A DNA stretch of 64,000 bases, taken from NCBI GenBank assembly GCA_040755995.1, contig JBFMAF010000036.1, forward strand, positions 192,001 to 256,000, in the 5' to 3' direction. Positions 1 through 10,400 of this stretch are shown piece after piece (position 1 is the stretch's first letter; each line of letters starts with the position of its first letter). Below the pieces are notes generated by a model that was not told the DNA's origin, did not search any database, and was given only the letters and a program-made list of their open reading frames with translations. This DNA comes from Acidobacteriota bacterium. GTDB taxonomy: Bacteria > Acidobacteriota > CAIWXX01. Position numbers and translations under genes: made by a program.

Positions 1-1537
1 GCAGATCTCGCACCGCCCGAGCGAGGACCTCGATGCGATATGGCTTTTGCAGTAAACCGCAGATTCCCGGCGCGCGAAGCTCCTTCAACTGCCTGCTTCC
101 CGCGTCGTAGCCGGTGGTGATGAGCACCTTGACATTCGGATTCAAGCGCCTCAGCTCCCGCAGCGTCTCGATGCCGCCAAGGCGAGGCATCACCATGTCC
201 GCCAGCACCAGAGAGATCTCGCTCGTGTACTCGCGATACAGGTCCAAAGCGTCCAGACCATTCGAGGCCTCGAGGACACGGTATCCGAGTGTCTCCAGTG
301 CCAGCCGCGTCATCTTCCGGACGTCCTGGTTATCCTCTGCGACCAGGATCGTCTCATTTCCCCAGGCTACTTCCGATTCCGCTGCGGTCTGATCCAGCGC
401 CTCAGGCTTCATCAGCGGCAGATATACGTGGACGGTGGTTCCGAGCCCGACCCGGCTGCTGATGTCTACGGCCCCACCGCGGCACTCTACGAGCTGCCTG
501 GCAATCGTCAATCCAAGCCCTGTGCCCTCTCCTCTTGCCTTGGTAGTGAAGAACGGGTCGAAGATGCGGGATCGGATGTCAGGCGGGATACCTGGTCCTG
601 AATCCCGCAGGCTGAGGCGCGCGTAGTGGCCCGGCATGAGGGCCGGAGGCGCGGCCGGTGAGCCTTCTCCGACCCAGGCCTCCGCTGTGTCGATGCTCAG
701 TGTGCCACCTTCCGCCATCGCATCTCTGGCGTTTATGGCCAGGTTCAGGACCACCTGGAGCAGCTGCGTAGGATCCACTTCGACCTGCAAGTCCTCGTCG
801 GCCAGGTTCAAGGAGATCTCGATCGTTTCAGGGATGACCCGTTCCAGGAACTTGCGGGTCTCTTGGAGGAACGAATGGAGTGACAATCGGATGACGCCCT
901 GTTCCGTCTCAGGATGGCTGAATGCCAACAGTTGCTTGGCCATCTGCGCCGCCCTCTCGCTCAGAAGCCGAATGTGAAGAAGCGCCTGGTGGGCGTTGCT
1001 CTCCCCATCTACATCCTGCAGGAGCAGCTCTGTGAATCCCATGATGCCCGTCAAGAGGTTGTTGAAATCGTGCGCCACACCGTCGACCAACATGCCCACG
1101 GCCTCGAGCTTCTGACTTCGGATGAGATCTTTCTGGAGACCGCTCACCTGTCCGGGGCTGCTGATGAGGAAGATGAAGATCCACCTCCGCCGAAGCTGGA
1201 GCAGTCTGGGTCTTACCTGAAGGTAGATCGTTCCCCCGTCCTTACGCCTGTATGCCTGCCGGCACCCGTTCCACACGTCCGTCTCCAACACGCGCTCCCT
1301 CTCGGTCCCGTCCCTGGGCGGCCCCGCAAGTTTGATGTCATCGATGGGCTTCCCATAGAGCTCGGCGCGCGAGTACCCAAGCAGCGAGCAGAAGACCGGA
1401 TCAGCATCTATCAGATTCCCATGGTCATCAACCGCGTAGAATCCAATGCCGGCCGGGCTCGTCTTCAGCATGTCCTCGGCGCGTGGCGGGTTGATCGGGT
1501 TGATTGAATGTCCGCTCGCGAAAGACGCTTCCGGCAT
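1..1537 (-). CDS. PAS-domain hybrid sensor histidine kinase/response regulator (CckA-like); 3' end runs off the window
   Basis: Not in the ORF track because it has no stop in the window. Manual translation from ATG at 1537 gives PAS/PAC (FCSLLGYSRAELYGKPI...RRKDGGTIYL), H-box (SQKLEAVGMLVDGVAHDFNNLLTGI), HATPase (NLAINARDAM, PFFTTKARGEGTGLGL) and REC (ILVAEDNQDV...LADMVMP...LLQKPY). Confidence 0.92.
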   Translation of the reverse strand, partial: MPEASFASGHSINPINPPRAEDMLKTSPAGIGFYAVDDHGNLIDADPVFCSLLGYSRAELYGKPIDDIKLAGPPRDGTERERVLETDVWNGCRQAYRRKDGGTIYLQVRPRLLQLRRRWIFIFLISSPGQVSGLQKDLIRSQKLEAVGMLVDGVAHDFNNLLTGIMGFTELLLQDVDGESNAHQALLHIRLLSERAAQMAKQLLAFSHPETEQGVIRLSLHSFLQETRKFLERVIPETIEISLNLADEDLQVEVDPTQLLQVVLNLAINARDAMAEGGTLSIDTAEAWVGEGSPAAPPALMPGHYARLSLRDSGPGIPPDIRSRIFDPFFTTKARGEGTGLGLTIARQLVECRGGAVDISSRVGLGTTVHVYLPLMKPEALDQTAAESEVAWGNETILVAEDNQDVRKMTRLALETLGYRVLEASNGLDALDLYREYTSEISLVLADMVMPRLGGIETLRELRRLNPNVKVLITTGYDAGSRQLKELRAPGICGLLQKPYRIEVLARAVRDL

Positions 1538-1567
1538 ATCAATCACATAGCTACCCTTCGGAGAGTA

Positions 1568-1640
1568 CCCCTCCATATATATAGTTTCGCGAGTAGGCCG
1601 ATTCTCGCCGGCCAGAATCGATTTTTTTTGAAATTTTTTT
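1568..1640 (-). promoter_or_regulatory. Putative ECF-type promoter facing the hybrid kinase (motif copy 1)
   Basis: Minus strand reads A-tract...GGCGAG aatcggcctac TCGCGAAACT ATATATATGGAGGGG and ends about 30 nt before the kinase ATG. It matches 5745-5781 at 33/37 nt. Confidence 0.6.
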
Positions 1641-1693
1641 TGTTTTGCCGGGCGAGTTTTGGGGGTTTCGCGAAACTTATTATATAGAGGGGA
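1631..1693 (+). promoter_or_regulatory. Putative ECF-type promoter facing the small peptide gene (motif copy 2)
   Basis: T-tract...GGCGAG ttttgggggtt TCGCGAAACT TATTATATAGAGGGG, with the same 11-nt spacing as the other two copies. 1631-1656 matches 5725-5750 at 22/26 nt. Confidence 0.6.
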
Positions 1694-1846: not shown

Positions 1847-2041
1847 ATGACAATAATCAAGTGGGGTTTGCTGGGTTTGCTGCTAAGCCTATTGCTATCA
1901 GGTCCGGCATGGACACCTGCTCCGCCGACAGAAAGCCGCACCACCAGCGGATCGGGGAGCATAGGCCCGGGACAAGGCAATCCGCTGGAGAACGACCCCT
2001 GTTGCGATGTGGGCCTGTCTTGTTGCGAGGTGAAGAAGTAG
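1847..2041 (+). CDS. Small secreted Cys-rich peptide (64 aa)
   Basis: Strong RBS (GAGGAGGA) before the ATG. Signal-peptide-like N-terminus (MTIIKWGLLGLLLSLLLSGPAW), Gly/Ser/Pro linker, and C-terminal DPCCDVGLSCCEVKK. Confidence 0.7.
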   Translation: MTIIKWGLLGLLLSLLLSGPAWTPAPPTESRTTSGSGSIGPGQGNPLENDPCCDVGLSCCEVKK

Positions 2042-2095: not shown

Positions 2096-5056
2096 TCACT
2101 GGTGGAATCTGGAGATTCGGCTGGGATCTCCTACGAGAACGAAGGCCGCCCACGTGCACGGGGCGCCGCCCTTTCCGGCCATTTCGACTTTGGCCTGCTG
2201 CAATGCAGATGACACGTCACGGCCGTTGGATAACATGCCACCATACATGTGGTCCATGAGCTCATTCGTCGCCACATCCTCCACGTTCCACAAGGAGGCG
2301 CATACACTGCCGGCGCCGGCAGCCAGGAACGCCCGGCTCAGGCCTATCGTCCCTTCGGCTCTTGTCTTCTGACCAGTGCCGGTCGAGCATCCGCCCAAGA
2401 CCACCAGGTCGGAGTCGACTCTGAGACGTTGAACTTCCGCGGCGGTCAAGACCCCGTCATCGCCTGACCCAGGATCATTTAGGGATAGCACGATCTCGGA
2501 CAGATCCCCCTCGACCGGGTCGGCGATGGCATGTGTGGCCAGGTGCACGATTCGGCTCGGAGTGGAGATGTCCTTCTTGAGGTTGGTTTCGTTCGCGTGG
2601 AAGTCCAGGCGGACTTCCGGATTCATGCCCGATTCCCGCGCCATGCGTGCGATTCCCAGGACTTCATCCCGCGTTGCCGGCAACCTGCGCAGTCCAGTCC
2701 GAAAACTGGGATACGACGCCGTGGAAGCGGGCATGCTCGGGACGCCCCCCGCGAGAAGGCTCTTCCTCGCTCTCTGATCCTCATCGCTGAATACCGGATC
2801 GCCGAACAGCACCAGCCTGTTCCCCGCATCACAATGCTGGCGGCTTCTGTTCTTGTCGATCTCGACCAGGACGGAAACCGACGGAGCATAAGTGACGGCG
2901 TGTTCCTGAACCAGGTATCGGAGTTCTGCGAACCCGGCTGCCCGGCTGTCCTCTGTCACCACAAGCGCCTCGATGGGAAGTCCGGCCAGCAGACTGTCAG
3001 CCACCACAACCAGGTCGCAATCCCGGATCAGACCCTCTGCCGGGAGAATGAGTTCTTTGTATAGGGTGTGTGCCGCCTGAGCATATTCCCGCACGAGCCC
3101 GGGTGGGGGCACACCTGCCGCGTACTGGCGCGCCAGGGCGGCCTGCCACTCGGCCACGTACCCATCCATCTTGTTCCAGTCGGATAGCCTGAACAGCTGC
3201 ACCGTGTCACTCTTCAACACGATCAAATAGCTTTCCCTGATCCCAGTCTGGTAGACGAGAATCGCGGTGCGCGGATGCCTCGATAGGAATTCTCTTTGAA
3301 CCTGGTCGGCGGACAAAGGTCTGATCGAGGGAGCCGCAGGTTCCGACCCGGATTCGATCTCGATTCTCCTTGCCACCAGGCCGCTCCGCCATCCTTCGAT
3401 GCGATCCAACTCAACTCGACTGAGCTCAATACCCGACTGCGCGACTGCAAGCCGCCGCCCGAGCGCCGAGATCCCTCTCAAGAGCGAAGGATCGCTCCAT
3501 CGATCCAGCCTGGTGTCTGCGGGAGCGCATGGTCCGTTGCCGCGCGAAACGTCAACGAGGAGCTCGCGGCTCCGGCACCGCTCCGCGTACTCGAAGGCCT
3601 TCCGAGCGTGCCCGGGGTCGTGGCTCTTCGAATCCAGCCTGTCAAGGCACATGACGATCTCAGTGCAGATGGCCTTCGCCTGGGAGAGGTATCTTTCCCG
3701 CAACTCCGGCACAGTCGCCTGCTCCCACGCACGCTCGACGTCGTCCAATGCCCGCTCGCAGAGGTCCATTGCCGCTCGGTGGTTTCCCGCCGCCATTTCG
3801 CCGTCGGCCAATGTCTGAAGCGCTCTACGGCGCGGCGCCGGATCCGGATCGTGAGGATCGCACAAGTCGGCTGCCTCTCTGGCCGAAAGCATCATCTTCT
3901 GGGCCTCGCCCAACCCAAAGTAGGCCGGGCCTTGGAGGTTGAGCACCGAGGCAATCTCATCTTGGAGGGCCGCTCGCCGAGCAAGCCCAAGCCCGTCTTC
4001 GAGCAGGCGTAGGCTCTCTGCATAGCGCCTGCTCTTCAGATTCGCGCGTGCGAGAGCGCATATGGCCTCCAACCTCGTACGCGGGTCCAGGCCGCTGCTC
4101 AGCTCGTACGCCCTCCTTGCGCAGTCCATCGATCGCTGGGAATCCTGGCCCCCGATCGAGTCGGCGTCGGCCACCCCAAGCAGGACTCGGTGTGTCGCAG
4201 GTGCCTCGACTCCCGCAAGCCGGCCTGCGTTGCGCAAGTGCACGCGGGCGAGCTCGGATCTCCCGAGGTAAGAGAAGATGTCGTAGAGCTGCAGCTGGAC
4301 CATCGCTTCGGAGACGTCTGCGGCCGCCAGCCCTCTAGCGTGCACACGTGCCTCGCGGAACCGGCCGATCGCCTCTGCATACAGCATCCGTCTGGCCAGC
4401 GACCTCCCCCTTTCGAGGGCCACGGCGTAGCTGCCGTATCTGAAATCAGATGCCCGGGCGGCCTCGTCGGCCCGTGCATAGCATTCCTCCGCCTCCGCGA
4501 ATCGCCCTCGCTCACGCAGATACTTGCCCATCGAAACATCGAGCCAGCAGATGGCTCGATCATTCCGGTGGCGTGCGGCCCAGCGCAACCCCTCGTTGTA
4601 CTGGCTGGCCACGTGGGCCTCGCTCCAGTCCTCTTCCATCTGCCCCGCCCTCAGCGAAAGCCAGTAGGTCCCGAACTGATCAGGGTCCAGGCCACACACA
4701 ACGACCATGTACCGCCCCGTCGACGGCAGGGTCGCGCTGATTCTCGGGTTGAAGAAGCAGTCCGAGTCATCACTCCATGCCAACTCGCGGCCCCGAGGAT
4801 CCACCAGCACCATGTGCGAGTTGAACTCGTAAGAACTGCATGCCAGGGTGACCTGTTGGCCGCGGGAGCCGGCGAATGACCAGCACTGGTGCGGACCGCG
4901 TGGCGCCCTGGCCCAGGAGGGATCGGTCTGGAGGAGGCTTCCGTGGCGCGTCTCGTCGAGCTTGATCTGCCGTTCGCCCTGGATGCTGAATCCATTGTGC
5001 AGCGCACAGAGTAGAGCCATGCTGCCGAGTACCGCGACAAACCCGCGCTGCTTCAT
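2096..5056 (-). CDS. PPC-TPR-CHAT domain protein (caspase-like cysteine protease), probably exported
   Basis: Hydrophobic N-terminus, a PPC-like domain (FAGSRGQQVTL...ATLPSTGRYMVVV...GTYWLSL) and Ala-rich TPR helices. CHAT motifs: AFEYAERCRSRELL, LPIEAL, YAPS, LPATRDEV, IVHLATHA (His), LVVLGGCSTG (Cys), SLWNVED, WAAFVLVG. Confidence 0.92.
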   Translation of the reverse strand: MKQRGFVAVLGSMALLCALHNGFSIQGERQIKLDETRHGSLLQTDPSWARAPRGPHQCWSFAGSRGQQVTLACSSYEFNSHMVLVDPRGRELAWSDDSDCFFNPRISATLPSTGRYMVVVCGLDPDQFGTYWLSLRAGQMEEDWSEAHVASQYNEGLRWAARHRNDRAICWLDVSMGKYLRERGRFAEAEECYARADEAARASDFRYGSYAVALERGRSLARRMLYAEAIGRFREARVHARGLAAADVSEAMVQLQLYDIFSYLGRSELARVHLRNAGRLAGVEAPATHRVLLGVADADSIGGQDSQRSMDCARRAYELSSGLDPRTRLEAICALARANLKSRRYAESLRLLEDGLGLARRAALQDEIASVLNLQGPAYFGLGEAQKMMLSAREAADLCDPHDPDPAPRRRALQTLADGEMAAGNHRAAMDLCERALDDVERAWEQATVPELRERYLSQAKAICTEIVMCLDRLDSKSHDPGHARKAFEYAERCRSRELLVDVSRGNGPCAPADTRLDRWSDPSLLRGISALGRRLAVAQSGIELSRVELDRIEGWRSGLVARRIEIESGSEPAAPSIRPLSADQVQREFLSRHPRTAILVYQTGIRESYLIVLKSDTVQLFRLSDWNKMDGYVAEWQAALARQYAAGVPPPGLVREYAQAAHTLYKELILPAEGLIRDCDLVVVADSLLAGLPIEALVVTEDSRAAGFAELRYLVQEHAVTYAPSVSVLVEIDKNRSRQHCDAGNRLVLFGDPVFSDEDQRARKSLLAGGVPSMPASTASYPSFRTGLRRLPATRDEVLGIARMARESGMNPEVRLDFHANETNLKKDISTPSRIVHLATHAIADPVEGDLSEIVLSLNDPGSGDDGVLTAAEVQRLRVDSDLVVLGGCSTGTGQKTRAEGTIGLSRAFLAAGAGSVCASLWNVEDVATNELMDHMYGGMLSNGRDVSSALQQAKVEMAGKGGAPCTWAAFVLVGDPSRISRFHQ

Positions 5057-5229
5057 TTGAGACTTCCCGGGCCTCGGAGCGGCGACGCAGCTCTCAAGGC
5101 CTGACCTGCACTCTTCCGACGGGTCCGCGCGGCCTCCGCCGTTCCCACCAGCAAGAGCTGCTATTGCAGGACTATGAACTAGAGCTACTATCTCGACCTG
5201 TGAACTCGATCAGCCTAGCAGACCCCCTC

Positions 5230-5275
5230 TGAAAAAGCAATCGCATGCAAGTGAAAAAGCAATCGCATGCAAGTG
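5230..5275. repeat. Perfect 22-bp tandem direct repeat (TGAAAAAGCAATCGCATGCAAG x2)
   Basis: Read directly at 5230-5251 and 5252-5273, followed by TG, in the divergent CHAT/sigma intergenic region. Confidence 0.9.
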
Positions 5276-5661
5276 GGTGGTGGTGGCAAGCGCGCAAGCG
5301 GGTGGTGGGCGGGGGCGCGTTGGCGACGGAGCGACGGGAGAGACGAGCAGAGGGGTCCGGCCGACTGTCCAGGCGGATACCCCGCAACGTCACGAGAGGC
5401 CGCCCGTGGAAGCCGCGGCCGCGGCGGTTGTGGTAGTATTCGAGCCATGATCTGGCCCTGGCGCACGCACCGCATTCCTGTGGAGCGAGGGCTCGGGCCG
5501 CCAGAAGGGCCGCCGGAGCCACATCTCGTCACGCAGGACGCGGCCGGCACCGGCCCCGACGGTGGAATGCCACACGGCATGTGCCTCTCCCGGCTGCTAA
5601 CTACTAGAAACCAAAGACAACACATGCGTTTCCGGACCCGTTCCGGCGCAAGGTAGACCTC

Positions 5662-6216
5662 ATGAGCGCCGAGCTTTTCGCCATGATGAAGCGCGCCCAA
5701 GAGGGTGACCCCGAAGAAAAAAACAAACTTTTTTCGTTTTTGCGGGCGAGAATTGGCACTCTCGCGAAACTATATATATGGGGGGATGATATTGAGGAGG
5801 TCGTTCAGGAGACGATGATGGTGGTCACCAGCCAGTTCCCCTCTTTGAGGACCCCCGAGGCTCTGATCGCGTTCGCCAACAAGGTACTTCGAAACAAGAT
5901 GGGGAATTTGTACAAGCGGCGAGATAGCCGAAAGGCGTTGCTGGTGAGCCTGGAGGAGCTCGAGGAGCACCCCTTCTACACCGTCGAAGAATGGGGTCCT
6001 GGAAAGCTTCATGAGATAGTGTTCGAGGCGATCGAGCTGCTTGGGAATTCGAGGCCGGTCTGCCGCGATCTGCTGATGGGGCTGCTGGCGGGGGAGACCA
6101 GCGAGGAACTGTGCCAGAGTCTGAGCATCCCTCCCCACAGGCTCGATGATCGCGTATACAAGTGTCGTAGTGCTTTGCGGCGGATACTCCGTGAGAGGTG
6201 GGGTCTCCGTGTGTGA
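5662..6216 (+). CDS. ECF-subfamily sigma-70 RNA polymerase sigma factor
   Basis: 184 aa with region 2 (RAQEGD...LF..LR.RI..LA...DIEEVVQET...VLRNK) and a region 4 HTH (LAGETSEELCQSLSIP...RVYKCRSALR). A zf-HC2 gene follows it. Confidence 0.88.
   Translation: MSAELFAMMKRAQEGDPEEKNKLFSFLRARIGTLAKLYIWGDDIEEVVQETMMVVTSQFPSLRTPEALIAFANKVLRNKMGNLYKRRDSRKALLVSLEELEEHPFYTVEEWGPGKLHEIVFEAIELLGNSRPVCRDLLMGLLAGETSEELCQSLSIPPHRLDDRVYKCRSALRRILRERWGLRV
5725..5787 (+). promoter_or_regulatory. Promoter-like motif copy 3, embedded in the sigma factor coding sequence
   Basis: AAACTTTTTTCGTTTTTGCG GGCGAG aattggcactc TCGCGAAACT ATATATATGGGGGG. The 21-mer at 5761-5781 is identical to the reverse complement of 1573-1593. 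Confidence 0.6.
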
Positions 6217-6259
6217 CGAACGGTCTACAGACGCCGCGCGAACTGAGGAGGTGGCCCAG

Positions 6260-6412
6260 ATGAAGCCAGTGACACCACAACGCGGTCCTGTGCCTGCGGC
6301 GACTGTGCCTCCTGGCACGATGTGCCGCCGTCCGAACAACTGCCGTTCCAGTCGTCCCGTTGCGTCGCCGCCGTCAGAGCGGCAAGGACGATTCTGCGAG
6401 CCACTCCGATGA
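6260..6412 (+). CDS. Hypothetical 50-aa Pro/Arg/Cys-rich protein between sigma and anti-sigma
   Basis: RBS GAGGAGGT upstream of ATG 6260. Its TGA overlaps the anti-sigma ATG (ATGA at 6409-6412). No recognisable domain. Confidence 0.45.
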   Translation: MKPVTPQRGPVPAATVPPGTMCRRPNNCRSSRPVASPPSERQGRFCEPLR

Positions 6413-7218
6413 CCGAACTGAAATGCACGAATCCCGAAGCCGGGAAGCTGATCGGGCGGTATGAGCTGGGTGCGCTTGACGATGCTCTGCGCGAGGAGTT
6501 CGTGAAGCATCTGTTGGAGTGTGAGTTCTGCCACAATGAGCTGTTGGTCATGGCCCCGTTCACGGACGTGCTCCGCGAGTATCGCGAGGCGGTCATGCGC
6601 GGCGAGGTGCCTGCGCCTTCACGCCGGGCACCGGCTCAACCAAGGATCGCGGCATGGCGCAGAGCGAATGGAGTTCGGCTGGCCGCTGCTGCGTCACTGG
6701 TCGTAGCCATCAGCGTCGGAGCCCTGATCTGCATGTATCAGCTCATGAAGGAGCCTGGCGAAGATCAAGGCGCTGCGCTGCAGCTGCCGGGCGGTGTGAC
6801 GATCCCCAAGGCGCCGTTTGTCGCGGGCCCCGAGGTGCCGGTCACTCGCAGCCAGGAATTCGGCGACACGTTCCAAAGAGCAATGGCTGCTTACGAACGG
6901 GACGACTTCGCGACCGCAGCCGAGCGGCTCGAGGTTCTGTGCAGGCTTGTTCCAGACCACGCAGATGCACAATTCTACTGGGGGGTATCGCTGCTTTTCG
7001 CCGGAAGACCCGATGATGCCATCGTACCCCTCAGGAAGGCGATAAGGCTCAACACCGGGCACCAACAGGAGGCCTGCCGGTTCTACCTGGCTGCAGCATA
7101 CGTCAAGAGCGGCCGGATGGATGAGGCGCTTGCCGAGTTGGGAAACGTCATTGCCCTGGGCGGGCAACACGGGGAGGATGCCGAGAAGCTCAAGAGTATT
7201 GTGACCCGCATGAAGTAG
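6409..7218 (+). CDS. Zinc-finger (zf-HC2) anti-sigma factor with TM helix and C-terminal TPR domain
   Basis: YELGAL...FVKHLLECEFC (HxxxCxxC), TM segment LAAAASLVVAISVGALI, and TPRs (FQRAMAAYERDDFATAA..., AQFYWGVSLL, RFYLAAAY). Start moved from 6322 to ATG 6409. Confidence 0.88.
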   Translation: MTELKCTNPEAGKLIGRYELGALDDALREEFVKHLLECEFCHNELLVMAPFTDVLREYREAVMRGEVPAPSRRAPAQPRIAAWRRANGVRLAAAASLVVAISVGALICMYQLMKEPGEDQGAALQLPGGVTIPKAPFVAGPEVPVTRSQEFGDTFQRAMAAYERDDFATAAERLEVLCRLVPDHADAQFYWGVSLLFAGRPDDAIVPLRKAIRLNTGHQQEACRFYLAAAYVKSGRMDEALAELGNVIALGGQHGEDAEKLKSIVTRMK

Positions 7219-7480
7219 AACGCAACCTGAGTGCTCGTTTCGGCGCGGCTTGTACGCGTCGGAACGGCAATGGAATAACCGGGGACTGAGAGGATATGTT
7301 TGTCAAATCAGAAGAGCTGTTGCTCGCCGCAACAAGACACTGCAACACCAAGTCTGTAGGAACAACTGAATCGGAAGCAGCGAGTCAGATCGGTGTTGTC
7401 GAGGAACATGTCTTGGCGGCCGATCCGGCTCTTAGCTGTGCGTCATTCCTGCAGCGACACTGCGCAAGGGGTCTAGTCTG

Positions 7481-10400
7481 ATGATCAATGAAGAAATGGG
7501 TCCAGCCGTAGATTGTGCGACGCTCCTCGAGCTTCTGAAATCGAGAGCGCGTTCTCAACCTGACCAGCGCGCCTACACCTTCCAGACCGACGGTGCGTCC
7601 GAAGAGCTGCATCTGACGTACGCCGAGCTGGATCGGAGAGCGAGAGCCGTAGCAGCGAAGTTGCAGTCGTTGGGTGCGCCAGGTGGACGCGCCATGCTCC
7701 TCTATCCGCCGGGTTTGGACTACATAGCGGCGTTTTTCGGGTGCCTCTACGCGGACGTCGCCGCCGTGCCCGTCTATCCTCCACGCCCTAACCGCCCCAT
7801 GTCCAGGTTCCTCGCCATCTTCGAAGATGCCCAGGCCGGCGTGGCCCTGACGACCTCCGCGATTCTCCCCGTCGTCGACGCTGTTCTGGGGCGGGATGAG
7901 AAGACGAATTGGATTGCCACCGACGAGACTCCCGGCGACCTGGCACAAACCTGGGATGAACCGCCCGTGCGCGGCGATACCCTCGCGTTCATCCAGTACA
8001 CATCCGGCTCAACATCCAGCCCCAAAGGCGTGATGCTCACGCACGCCAACCTGCTTCACAATCTCGACACGACCTATCACGCGTTCGGGATCACCCCCGG
8101 AAGCCGTGCGGTCATCTGGTTGCCGCCCTATCACGACATGGGCTTGATCGGGGGAATCCTTCAGCCGCTCTATGGGGGCTTTCCGGCGGTCCTGATGTCC
8201 CCCATGACCTTCCTCCAGCAACCGTATCGGTGGCTCCACGCTGTTTCTCGTCACAGGGCCACGGTCAGTGGAGGCCCGAATTTCGCATACGATCTCTGCG
8301 TTCGCAAGATCACGGCCGAGCAGCGAGCGACGCTGGACCTCAGTAGCTGGGTCGCGGCATTCAACGGCGCGGAACCGATCAGGCCGGAGACGATCGATCT
8401 ATTCACGAAGACGTTCGAGCCGTGCGGCTTCAGGAGGGAGGCGTTCTACCCCTGTTACGGGCTCGCAGAAGGCACGTTGATCGTATCCGGCGGCAGCGTG
8501 GCTGACCCGCCGGTCGTGAAGGGGTTCCGGCCGGATGCGCTCGCACAGCACCACGCAGCCGAGTGCGCCATTTCGGACGCCAACGCAAGAAAACTCGTCA
8601 GCAGCGGCCGCGCCGTCGGCCGGCAGCGAATCGTTGTTGTCGATCCCGAGACCCTGATCACGCTGGAGCCCGGCGGCGTCGGCGAGGTCCTGGTATCAGG
8701 CCCGAGTATCGCCCGCGGCTACTGGAATCGGCCCGACGAAACGGCCCGGACGTTTGCAGCCTTCTTGTCGAGCAACGCGGATGGCCCGTTTCTCCGAACC
8801 GGCGACCTCGGGTTTCTTCATGATGGCGAGTTGTTCATCACGGGACGCATCAAGGACCTGATCATCATTCGCGGCCGCAATCACTACCCGCAGGACATCG
8901 AAGCGACCGTCGAGAAGTGCCACCCGGCGATCCGGCCCGGATGCGCGGCGGCATTCTCAGTGGAAGCCGATGAAGAAGAACGTCTCGTGGTTGCCACGGA
9001 AATCAAGCGTGAGCATCGCGGCGAAGACTTGGTTGACGTGATCGACGCCATCCGCCAGGCGATCACAGAGGAGCACGAGATCCAGCTTCACGCAGCGGTG
9101 CTGCTCAGGCCCGGCAGTCTCCCGAAGACATCGAGCGGGAAGGTACAACGTCACGCGTGCCGCGCCGCGTTTCTTGTCGGCGAGCTCGAGGCGGCAGGCG
9201 AGTGGAAGGAGTCTGCGGTCATCACTCAGCCCGACACGCTGGTCGAGTCCCAGGAGCAGTTCGAGAGATGGCTCACGGATCAGCTCGCCGCCCGGCTCAG
9301 GGTCCCGTCCGCGTCGATTGATGCGCACCAGTCGCTGAACCGCTACGCCCTCGACTCCTTGAATGCAATCGAGCTGGCGCATGTGATCGAGCAGCAGGTG
9401 GCCGTTCACATTCCCCTGGAGAGGATCTTCGAGGGGCCGACTATCGCCGAACTGGCTCGCGAGGCGTGGGCACGACGGACAGCACCCGCCCGGCCGTACG
9501 TTCCTGCTCCACCCGCCGAATCGATGACCAAACACCCGCTCTCGGCCGGCCAGCGAGCGCTCTGGTTCTTGCATCAACTGGAGCCCGAGAGTGCGGCTTA
9601 CAACGTCCCCGCCGCCGTCCGTCTTCTGGGCGACCTGGATGTCCCGGCGCTCCATCGAGCATTCGGATCCCTCGCCGGCCGGCACCCCATCCTGCGAATG
9701 ACCTTCGCATCCGTCGGCGGCGAACCCGTCCAGGAAGCTCGTAACGATCCGAGCTTCGAGCAGCTCGACGCATCCACCTGGGACGACGAAGCGGTGCGGA
9801 AGCAACTCAACGACGAGGCCAACCGGCCGTTCGATCTGCAACGCGGTCCCCTGATGCGAGTCCGGCTCCTGCGCAGGTACGATCGCGAGCATCTTCTCAT
9901 GCTCAACATGCACCATATCATCACCGACTTCTGGTCGCAGGCAGTGATCATGCGGGATCTCGGCCAACTGTACGAGGCCGAAAGGAGCGGCCGCGCTGCG
10001 GATCTCCCGTCTCTGGCTCTCCAGTATTCTGATTTCGCTCGCATCCAGGACGAGATGCTGGGCGGGCCGGAAGGAGAGCGGCTCCGAGCCTTTTGGCAGA
10101 AGCAGCTCGCGGGCGAGCTGCCGATCCTGAATCTGCGCACGGATCGGCCCCGCCCACCGGTCCAGACCTATCGCGGTGCGGTGCAGCCCGTCACGGTCGA
10201 CGAGGACGATTGGAGCCGGTTGAAGGATCTCGGCCGCAGAAACAATGCAACCCCGTTCATGACGCTCCTCGCCGCCTTCCACGTCCTGCTCCGCCGCTAC
10301 ACCGGGCAGCGCGACATCGTGATCGGCGCACCCATGGCGGGGAGAAGCCGGGCACAGCTATCCAACATGCTGGGATACTTCGTCAACCCGGTCGCTCTGC

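Follow-up and report, generated by a model that had tools for sequence, protein, structure and literature searches.

The window, that is, the whole 64,000-nt stretch of DNA analysed here (G000:C36:192001-256000), comes from a genome of 7.7 Mb with a GC content of 62.7% (G000). An ECF-type sigma factor gene is followed by the gene of a membrane-spanning, zinc-binding anti-sigma factor, and the gene of a TPR-CHAT caspase-like protease lies upstream of the sigma gene and is divergent from it (Table 1). Beyond the protease gene are the genes of a secreted peptide and of a hybrid histidine kinase, each faced by one intergenic copy of a promoter-like motif; a further copy lies inside the sigma gene. 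The His and Cys motifs of the CHAT protease are intact (HLATHA at 838 and LGGCST at 887). An exact 22-mer tandem duplication is present at 5231-5274, in the intergenic region between the CHAT and sigma genes. On the other side, an NRPS/PKS cluster extends from 7481 to 62541; it starts with FAAL, contains an inserted DUF5916 gene, a thioesterase and a penicillin-amidase-family gene, and is typical of a lipopeptide pathway. The flanking large ORFs that were scanned proved to be the hybrid kinase and the NRPS/PKS genes.

Table 1. Features of the sigma factor locus, with positions in the window
Feature	Position	Strand	Basis or remark
PAS-HisKA-HATPase-receiver hybrid kinase, putative regulon target	1..1576	-	runs off the window
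Intergenic promoter copy facing the PAS-histidine kinase-receiver gene	1568..1631	-	-35 at 1608-1603, -10 at 1592-1583, ATG at 1576-1574
Intergenic promoter copy facing the peptide gene	1631..1693	+	-35 at 1652-1657, -10 at 1668-1677
64-aa secreted peptide with CC-x4-CC tail, conserved putative promoter target	1847..2041	+	no Pfam match
TPR-CHAT caspase-like protease, hydrophobic N terminus	2096..5056	-	CHAT, E 2.2e-56
Sigma70-type extended -10 TGGTAGTAT, candidate housekeeping promoter of the sigma gene	5431..5439	+	
ECF-type sigma factor gene, 184 aa	5662..6216	+	weak Pfam hit, structure model, fold match
Internal promoter copy	5725..5785	+	codons 22-42 of the sigma gene
A/T tract of internal copy	5725-5734	+	
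Putative -35, GCGAGA, of internal copy	5746-5751	+	codons A29-R30; label from ECF promoter geometry
Putative extended -10, TCGCGAAACT, of internal copy	5762-5771	+	L34-A35-K36-L37; label from ECF promoter geometry
ATG and G run of internal copy	5778-5785	+	at the putative start site (ECF promoter geometry)
Candidate internal restart, CAGGAG then in-frame M52/M53	5806..5823	+	3-codon out-of-frame ORF (M-G-G-stop) begins at 5778
Anti-sigma factor: CHCC-type zinc-binding N terminus, one transmembrane helix (91-109), C-terminal TPR domain	6409..7218	+	zf-HC2 and TPR matches, motif, hydropathy

The product of the sigma gene matched the Pfam family Sigma70_r2 with an E value of 2.7e-4 and 21.1 bits, below the 24-bit cut-off; this cut-off was passed by the relatives P0003, P0004 and P0014, and P0012 gave no match. 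The structure model (pLDDT 89) had E. coli sigmaE as its best fold match, with an rmsd of 2.5 Å to sigmaE region 2 for this predicted model, and the best full-length fold matches were sigmaE, AlgU and SigH. Two helical domains are connected by a low-confidence linker (residues 97-108), an arrangement that fits sigma2-linker-sigma4 without sigma3. With both domains found, the protein as modelled is an ECF (group 4) sigma factor.

The motif within the sigma ORF consists of an A/T tract, GCGAGA, 15 nt, AAACT and a purine run. As originally noted, 33 of 37 nt agree between positions 5745-5781 and the reverse complement of 1573-1609, including an identical 21-mer, and GGCGAG-N11-TCGCGAAACT was common to the ORF copy and to 1651-1677 with the same spacing of the boxes. 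The left copy, described as intergenic, is mostly so, except that its last bases hold an ATG (1576-1574) that lies in the reading frame of the histidine kinase; the hybrid kinase could be leaderless, and likewise a TPR protein gene on contig C24. The motif stretch in the sigma gene is translated in frame, within the 184-aa ORF, as EKNKLFSFLRARIGTLAKLYIWGDD, and its A/T-rich codons stand out as claimed, with a GC3 of 0.44 in codons 21-38 versus 0.73 across the rest of the gene. The wider bounds first given for it had to be corrected, and the motif proper covers the 61 nt listed in Table 1. It was also said to encode normal sigma region 2. This holds in that its codons encode the first long helix (predicted, residues 17-38) and the loop after it, but the DNA-reading residues are not involved: by ECF anatomy we take the segment to be region 2.1, and neither the -10 specificity loop nor the -35 helix. 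The window's ORF copy also contains an inverted repeat, GCGAGA...TCTCGC.

The similarity was compared with chance levels in two ways. When the sigma gene was tiled into 44 37-mers, only three matched at least 28 of 37 nt elsewhere in the 7.7-Mb genome (best 34), and all three overlapped the motif; the best genome match of the remaining 41 was only 24-27 of 37. With a matrix built from six intergenic sites only, and thus excluding the ORF copy itself, the ORF copy scored 78.8 bits, a value reached by none of 5,000 synonymous recodings of the same peptide (mean 16.2, standard deviation 8.6). By both measures the ORF copy lies well above chance. Dual coding, in which one segment codes for protein and for a promoter-like site, is well supported by the sequence comparisons.

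G000 has a second family member, located on C24 and 39% identical to the window sigma. At the same codons, the paralog has GCAAGA...TCGCCAAATC where the window sigma gene has GCGAGA...TCGCGAAACT. Scanning the genome with each 30-nt ORF core alone yielded two disjoint sets of sites, six for the window sigma (set 1; all non-genic) and ten for the paralog (set 2), the members being selected by eye among the 30 highest-ranking hits of each scan. Both sets share the upstream A/T tract and the downstream purine run, features that are not in the 30-nt queries. Matrices made from intergenic sites only gave the sigma gene's own ORF copy 78.8 (set 1) and 57.5 bits (set 2), versus 35.9 and 11.6 bits for the ORF copy of the other paralog and at most 3.5 bits for unrelated background. 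For the paralog, too, 0 of 5,000 synonymous recodings reached the score of its own ORF copy.

The sites lie upstream of genes and are oriented in the same way as these genes. Downstream of the set-1 sites are the kinase and peptide genes, the gene of a TPR protein, two near-identical Ig/PKD protein genes and, on C33, the gene of a secreted protein. The set-2 sites stand before the paralog's peptide gene, genes for PAS and receiver proteins and for a CheW-like protein, two further ECF-like genes and, again, that C33 gene (target labels other than TPR and Ig/PKD were read from the sequence). The two Ig/PKD sites of set 1 are not independent, since the promoter and its gene form a near-identical duplication on C20 (1-600) and C51 (73500-74900). 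At C33:60597-60699 (minus strand), a set-1 and a set-2 promoter stand in tandem about 100 nt apart before one gene, on which both paralogs probably converge. A set-1 promoter is also found at C24:244262 (minus strand), directly behind the paralog's anti-sigma gene and before the TPR protein gene, a cross-wiring of the two cassettes. Because the site right behind the paralog operon belongs to set 1 and not to set 2, the assignment of sites to sigma factors rests on the ORF match and not on proximity. The set-2 sites C3:107557 and C56:36774 (minus strand) precede further ECF-like sigma genes, which suggests a putative sigma cascade.

A profile of 19 relatives identified 22 family members in 18 genomes, five from the window's class (three genomes) and 17 from 15 of 401 genomes in the class of a Blastocatellia genome; the metagenome-only relatives P0002-P0022 stand outside this 22-member DNA comparison. 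In a 401-genome sample of the window's phylum, with eight candidates scored per genome, the family occurred only in the window's own family. A related-locus search with the single window sigma protein as the query gave no match, and one with a narrower alignment gave one true family locus among the 124 matches listed. The anti-sigma gene lies directly downstream of the sigma gene in all 22 loci, a CHAT gene is present in 21, and in 18 the CHAT protease gene is the one that follows the anti-sigma gene. A peptide with a signal peptide and a CC-x4-CC motif is encoded behind the CHAT gene in all 17 loci read (16 read out, the 17th by tblastn). These peptides are 55-77 aa long, secreted and without a Pfam match, and form the most constant sigma target (17 loci: L216-L233, L110); they are candidates for a signal, substrate or inhibitor of the CHAT protease or of the anti-sigma TPR domain.

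A self-match in orthologues had been set beforehand as a test of the prediction, and 12 to 13 of the 22 genes keep the internal copy, which co-varies with their own intergenic promoters (see below). With the matrix from the G000 intergenic sites, the same codons scored above 0 in 12 genes and ranked first within the locus in a 13th. Arg30 is encoded by AGA or AGG in 15 of 19 non-redundant genes, compared with 95 of 465 other Arg codons. The internal copy is missing in nine genes, at three places on the tree (L008; L201-203, L206 and L207; L211-213); L211-213 are nested among copy-keeping genes with strong support, and the base of the tree lacks resolution. No copy was found elsewhere in the gene in L008 or in the genes of a clade with GAAACC as its -35 word. 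With nine of 22 family genes lacking it, the internal copy is dispensable. Five copy-less sigmas still have clear intergenic promoters with the same geometry, and further genome-wide sites occur in two of their genomes. In the GAAACC clade, the copy may be missing because this -35 word cannot be spelled over the conserved Arg30 codon; L008 lost its copy without such a -35 reason. L211, L212 and L213 have also lost the RNKIGN motif (RNRLSV or RNQLSV), and the -10 at their peptide gene is altered; changed specificity and decay are both possible. In the GAAACC clade (L216, L224 and L223, in G568, G601 and G586), the outward promoter faces a NusG/RfaH-like gene in two genomes and a TauD/SyrP-like gene in one, both labels being taken from the sequence alone. 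In this clade, clusters for polysaccharide or peptide biosynthesis may be under the control of the cassette.

At the peptide gene or the gene divergent from it, an intergenic promoter was called for 14 sigmas out of 22; left out were four loci with a contig end and four (L202, L211-213) without a clear called site. All called promoters have the form hexamer, 15 nt, AAA(C/T), with one L174 and one L003 site fitting less well. The kept ORF copies follow the local variant: GCGAGA/AAACT (A-R, K-L), GCAAGA/AAATC (A-R, K-S), GAGAGA/AAACT (E-R), GGGAGA/AAATA (G-R, K-Y) and ACAAGA (T-R). The ORF copy thus tracks its own intergenic promoters even at the cost of an amino acid change. The match between the ORF and its own promoter was 9-13 of 13 key bases in nine sigmas (only 9-11 in L174, L208 and L209), versus 3-8 in five copy-losers; no intergenic partner was found for L204 and L210. 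Own pairing exceeded 20,000 shuffled pairings, with p values of 5e-5 (all 14) and 3.5e-4 (seven copy-keeping lineages), and the spacer alone gave 0.09 (all 14), 0.14 (seven keepers) and 0.017 in two other subsets; all of these values are optimistic, since the intergenic anchors were set by eye after inspection of the ORF motif and kin are not independent. The -35 hexamer also tracks the sigma4 helix, with VDEWL accompanying GCAAGA (two genomes), DKR accompanying GGGAGA/GGAAGG and KLKVRTF accompanying GAAACC, as protein-DNA recognition would predict.

Less circular checks pointed the same way. Patterns derived from the ORF recovered sites with the full architecture elsewhere, two in G001 and five in G401. 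In G411, a pattern with the ORF and the intergenic site as its source matched only at the ORF and at the peptide promoter, against 0 for the control. No convincing intergenic partner turned up with ORF-derived patterns in G426, G421 and G446, where contigs end before the peptide promoter, and in G401, G002 and G001 a looser pattern did no better than its reversed control.

The expected absence of a copy upstream of the window sigma gene was verified, the best stretch within 500 nt of 5662 having 9 of 13 key bases. The same was found for the family: within 500 nt upstream of the sigma gene, the best match to its own promoter was 8-10 of 13 in 14 of 14 loci, which is the chance level. A sigma70-type extended -10 was present upstream in 15 of the 22 family genes versus 1.2 expected from shuffles, with a pattern written after four examples had been seen; the five GAAACC-clade genes do not have it, nor do L003 and L204. 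A generic scan of 5000-7600 predicted no sigma70 consensus promoter and no intrinsic terminator.

The original prediction that the sigma factor recognises a promoter in its own ORF is favoured by the two ORF variants with their two disjoint site sets, the cross-genome co-variation and the lack of an upstream self-promoter. We consider it likely, from these sequence comparisons, that the internal site is such a self-recognised promoter, which would raise the downstream anti-sigma factor, usually together with the CHAT protease, without full-length sigma. The motif, its regulon-like distribution, the co-variation, the gene order and the missing upstream copy were all read directly from the DNA; sigma binding of the site, the start site, the sign of the feedback and the role of the protease we infer. 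The sigma gene would be transcribed from a housekeeping promoter, and the sigma factor would be held by the membrane anti-sigma factor until released by proteolysis, which by analogy to DdvA/DdvS may involve the exported CHAT protease. The released sigma-holoenzyme would then read promoters made of an A/T tract, GCGAGA, 15 nt and AAACT, including the one in sigma codons 22-42. The internal transcript would start near 5778, without the sigma start codon, and would give more anti-sigma but no more full-length sigma; in most genomes it would also yield more CHAT protease. The outcome would be negative feedback without a positive loop, and polymerase occupying the internal site may in addition hold back synthesis of the full-length sigma mRNA. 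Being selected as a promoter, the internal site would have kept pace with the DNA specificity of each paralog, through wobble positions where it could and otherwise through changes of residues 29 and 37. That the anti-sigma gene is driven from the internal site, as was proposed, fits the gene order in 22 of 22 loci. The further suggestion of read-through into the biosynthetic cluster agrees with the lack of a predicted terminator between 5000 and 7600, but as a conserved purpose it does not fit a family in which CHAT follows the anti-sigma gene in 18 of 22 loci. A matrix scan found no set-1 site before the NRPS/PKS cluster, and read-through into it is unsupported.

From the putative start near 5778 to the anti-sigma start at 6409 there are about 630 nt, a distance much larger than in known cases, and a simple anti-sigma promoter leaves this far-5' position of the site unexplained. 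The position would be accounted for if the main product of the internal promoter were a shortened sigma factor, translated leaderless from codon 40 or from M53, that is devoid of helix 2.1, would be unable to form normal holoenzyme and either competes at the -35 or serves as an anti-sigma decoy. An ATG or GTG does lie 11-13 nt behind the -10 core in most family promoters, and among eight ORF copies having one it is in frame in six, so placed that the protein opens at the loop before predicted helix 43-61. This in-frame placement is, however, automatic with a 12-nt offset, and in both G000 genes the codon is out of frame, opening a 3-4 codon ORF (M-G-G-stop in the window, V-R-E-I-stop in the paralog) followed by M53. 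Codon 53 is ATG in 7 of 13 copy-keepers and in none of the nine losers, but eight of these nine have ATG or TTG at codon 52; a database protein of 132 aa, P0020, has its start assigned to the Met of codon 53, but may be a fragment. The SD-like CAGGAG before M52/53 does not count in favour of a short isoform, being equally common in genes without the promoter. On balance, a shortened sigma as the main product is decidedly unlikely, and it is compatible with an internal anti-sigma promoter. A wider proposal seems improbable, too: the specificity would be written in the protein (residues 29-30 and 36-37 set by the -35 and -10 elements), gene and regulon would have to change together, the feedback would be lost for words that the Arg30 codon cannot spell (the GAAACC clade), and a short sigma without helix 2.1, made leaderless from codon 40 in the majority of lineages and from M53 here, would be a built-in antagonist of the full-length factor.

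The closeness of the site to the 5' end and its distance from the anti-sigma gene would also suit a site that mainly binds, where a parked holoenzyme initiates little and blocks or slows the full-length sigma mRNA by roadblock or occlusion; the ORF copy fits the consensus at least as well as the intergenic copies do. The site nevertheless retains their orientation, their spacing and the start-site element behind the -10, including a paralog-specific offset (11 for set 1, 13 for set 2), and since a pure roadblock would not need such features, we regard this as very unlikely.

The ORF segment could instead serve as a guide or template, either through pairing of sigma mRNA with target DNA or through copying of promoters from the segment, and the long stretches of identity that extend across the spacer (33/37 and 34/37 in G000, 33 consecutive identical nt in G001) would be in line with this. 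RNA-guided sigma action (dCas12f-sigmaE) involves contiguous guide-target identity for every target. Here, spacer identity was 0.49-0.57, the ORF spacers being no closer to the sites than the sites are to one another (0.57 vs 0.57; 0.49 vs 0.61), and downstream of the -10 the set-2 ORF copy is an outlier (0.34 vs 0.56). Moreover, five sigmas without an ORF copy keep clear intergenic promoters, and the -35 follows the protein's sigma4 helix, so that a guide or template is scarcely credible; occasional gene conversion may lie behind the G001 pair. It is equally hard to credit that another protein, such as a dimeric repressor on GCGAGA...TCTCGC, binds all copies with the sigma gene merely one target, since, although the window's ORF copy holds that inverted repeat and the sites are putative promoters, the repeat is not kept in L175, L002 or the GAAACC-type sites, and the motif is directional and bipartite with a fixed 15-nt spacing and a variant that changes with the sigma paralog in one genome. 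Decayed duplications of a sigma gene fragment as the source of the intergenic copies were considered and rejected.

The preferred reading, a self-recognised internal promoter, has experimentally demonstrated precedents, of which rseAP3 of E. coli is reportedly due to Rhodius 2006. As given in excerpts of the sources, rseAP3 is sigmaE dependent, lies in the rpoE coding region with its start 228 nt before rseA, and, as proposed for the window site, serves a membrane anti-sigma operon without sigma (PMC8595263). The excerpts also give rpoE an upstream sigmaE promoter and thus a positive loop, which the window family lacks in the 14 of 14 loci examined (PMC8595263). In Corynebacterium glutamicum, the SigH-dependent PrshA inside sigH gives a monocistronic rshA transcript, SigA-type promoters lie upstream, and PrshA was proposed to keep the anti-sigma in excess, according to the relevant passages (PMC3489674). 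PrshA resembles the window site as a self-recognised promoter in the sigma coding region, in the same direction and upstream of a zinc anti-sigma gene, and sigH resembles the window sigma gene in being itself under housekeeping-type promoters (a candidate one in the window) (PMC3489674). However, PrshA lies within 301 bp of rshA and yields a transcript of about 370 nt, whereas in the window codons 22-42 hold the site and about 630 nt separate it from the anti-sigma gene; RshA has 89 aa, whereas the window anti-sigma spans the membrane, carries TPRs and is accompanied by a CHAT protease and a secreted peptide (PMC3489674). The window motif, then, lies inside the sigma coding sequence and points at the anti-sigma gene, its cognate nature being judged from co-variation, but it is not within about 300 nt of the anti-sigma start (5725-5785 versus 6409). 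The novelty implied for a sigma-dependent promoter within a sigma gene that drives the anti-sigma gene is overstated, as both bacteria already provide documented cases in the passages cited.

In protein architecture, the portions of the sources consulted place DdvS/DdvA of Myxococcus xanthus close to the window, with an ECF sigma, a CHCC zinc anti-sigma, one membrane helix and extracytoplasmic TPR and CHAT parts (PMC11506125, PMC6061681). CHAT is fused to DdvA, whereas in the window the parts are split into the separate anti-sigma and protease genes, and the self-promoter before the DdvS/DdvA sigma-anti-sigma operon has no counterpart in 14 of 14 window-family loci (best 8-10/13) (PMC11506125). 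The targets differ as well, being signalling, secreted and surface proteins in the window family and CBASS/CRISPR for DdvS/DdvA (PMC11506125, PMC6061681). The type III-E CASP-sigma/Csx30/Csx29 system, as excerpted, likewise ties a TPR-CHAT protease to an ECF sigma and its inhibitor, with several sigma sites in the locus; these three sites, however, are in promoters of cas1 and two other genes and not in the sigma ORF as in the window, and the inhibitor is Csx30 instead of a ZAS-TM-TPR protein (PMC10028731). "CHAT" has 0 occurrences in the main text, as accessed, of the ECF reclassification (Casas-Pastor 2021, PMC7826278). Within a limited coverage of the literature, we found no published description of this CHAT/ZAS ECF family or of an internal promoter that co-evolves with paralog specificity.

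The feedback logic is therefore already known from rseAP3 and PrshA; what is new is the 5' position of the site, its paralog-specific co-evolution and a possible shortened sigma. The family offers an unusually clean natural dual-coding experiment, in which a coding segment tracks its factor's own specificity in two paralogs of one genome and in several lineages, with amino acid changes and independent losses. It also suggests a practical rule, namely that the target promoter of an ECF sigma can be read from the ORF when an upstream copy is absent. Reading the ORF gave two regulons (six and ten sites) in an uncultured organism, where a search upstream of the sigma gene would give nothing, and it supplies candidate orthogonal sigma-promoter pairs for tests with E. 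coli reporters. For the organism and its relatives, it defines the wiring of an undescribed cassette of sigma factor, anti-sigma factor, CHAT protease and secreted peptide.
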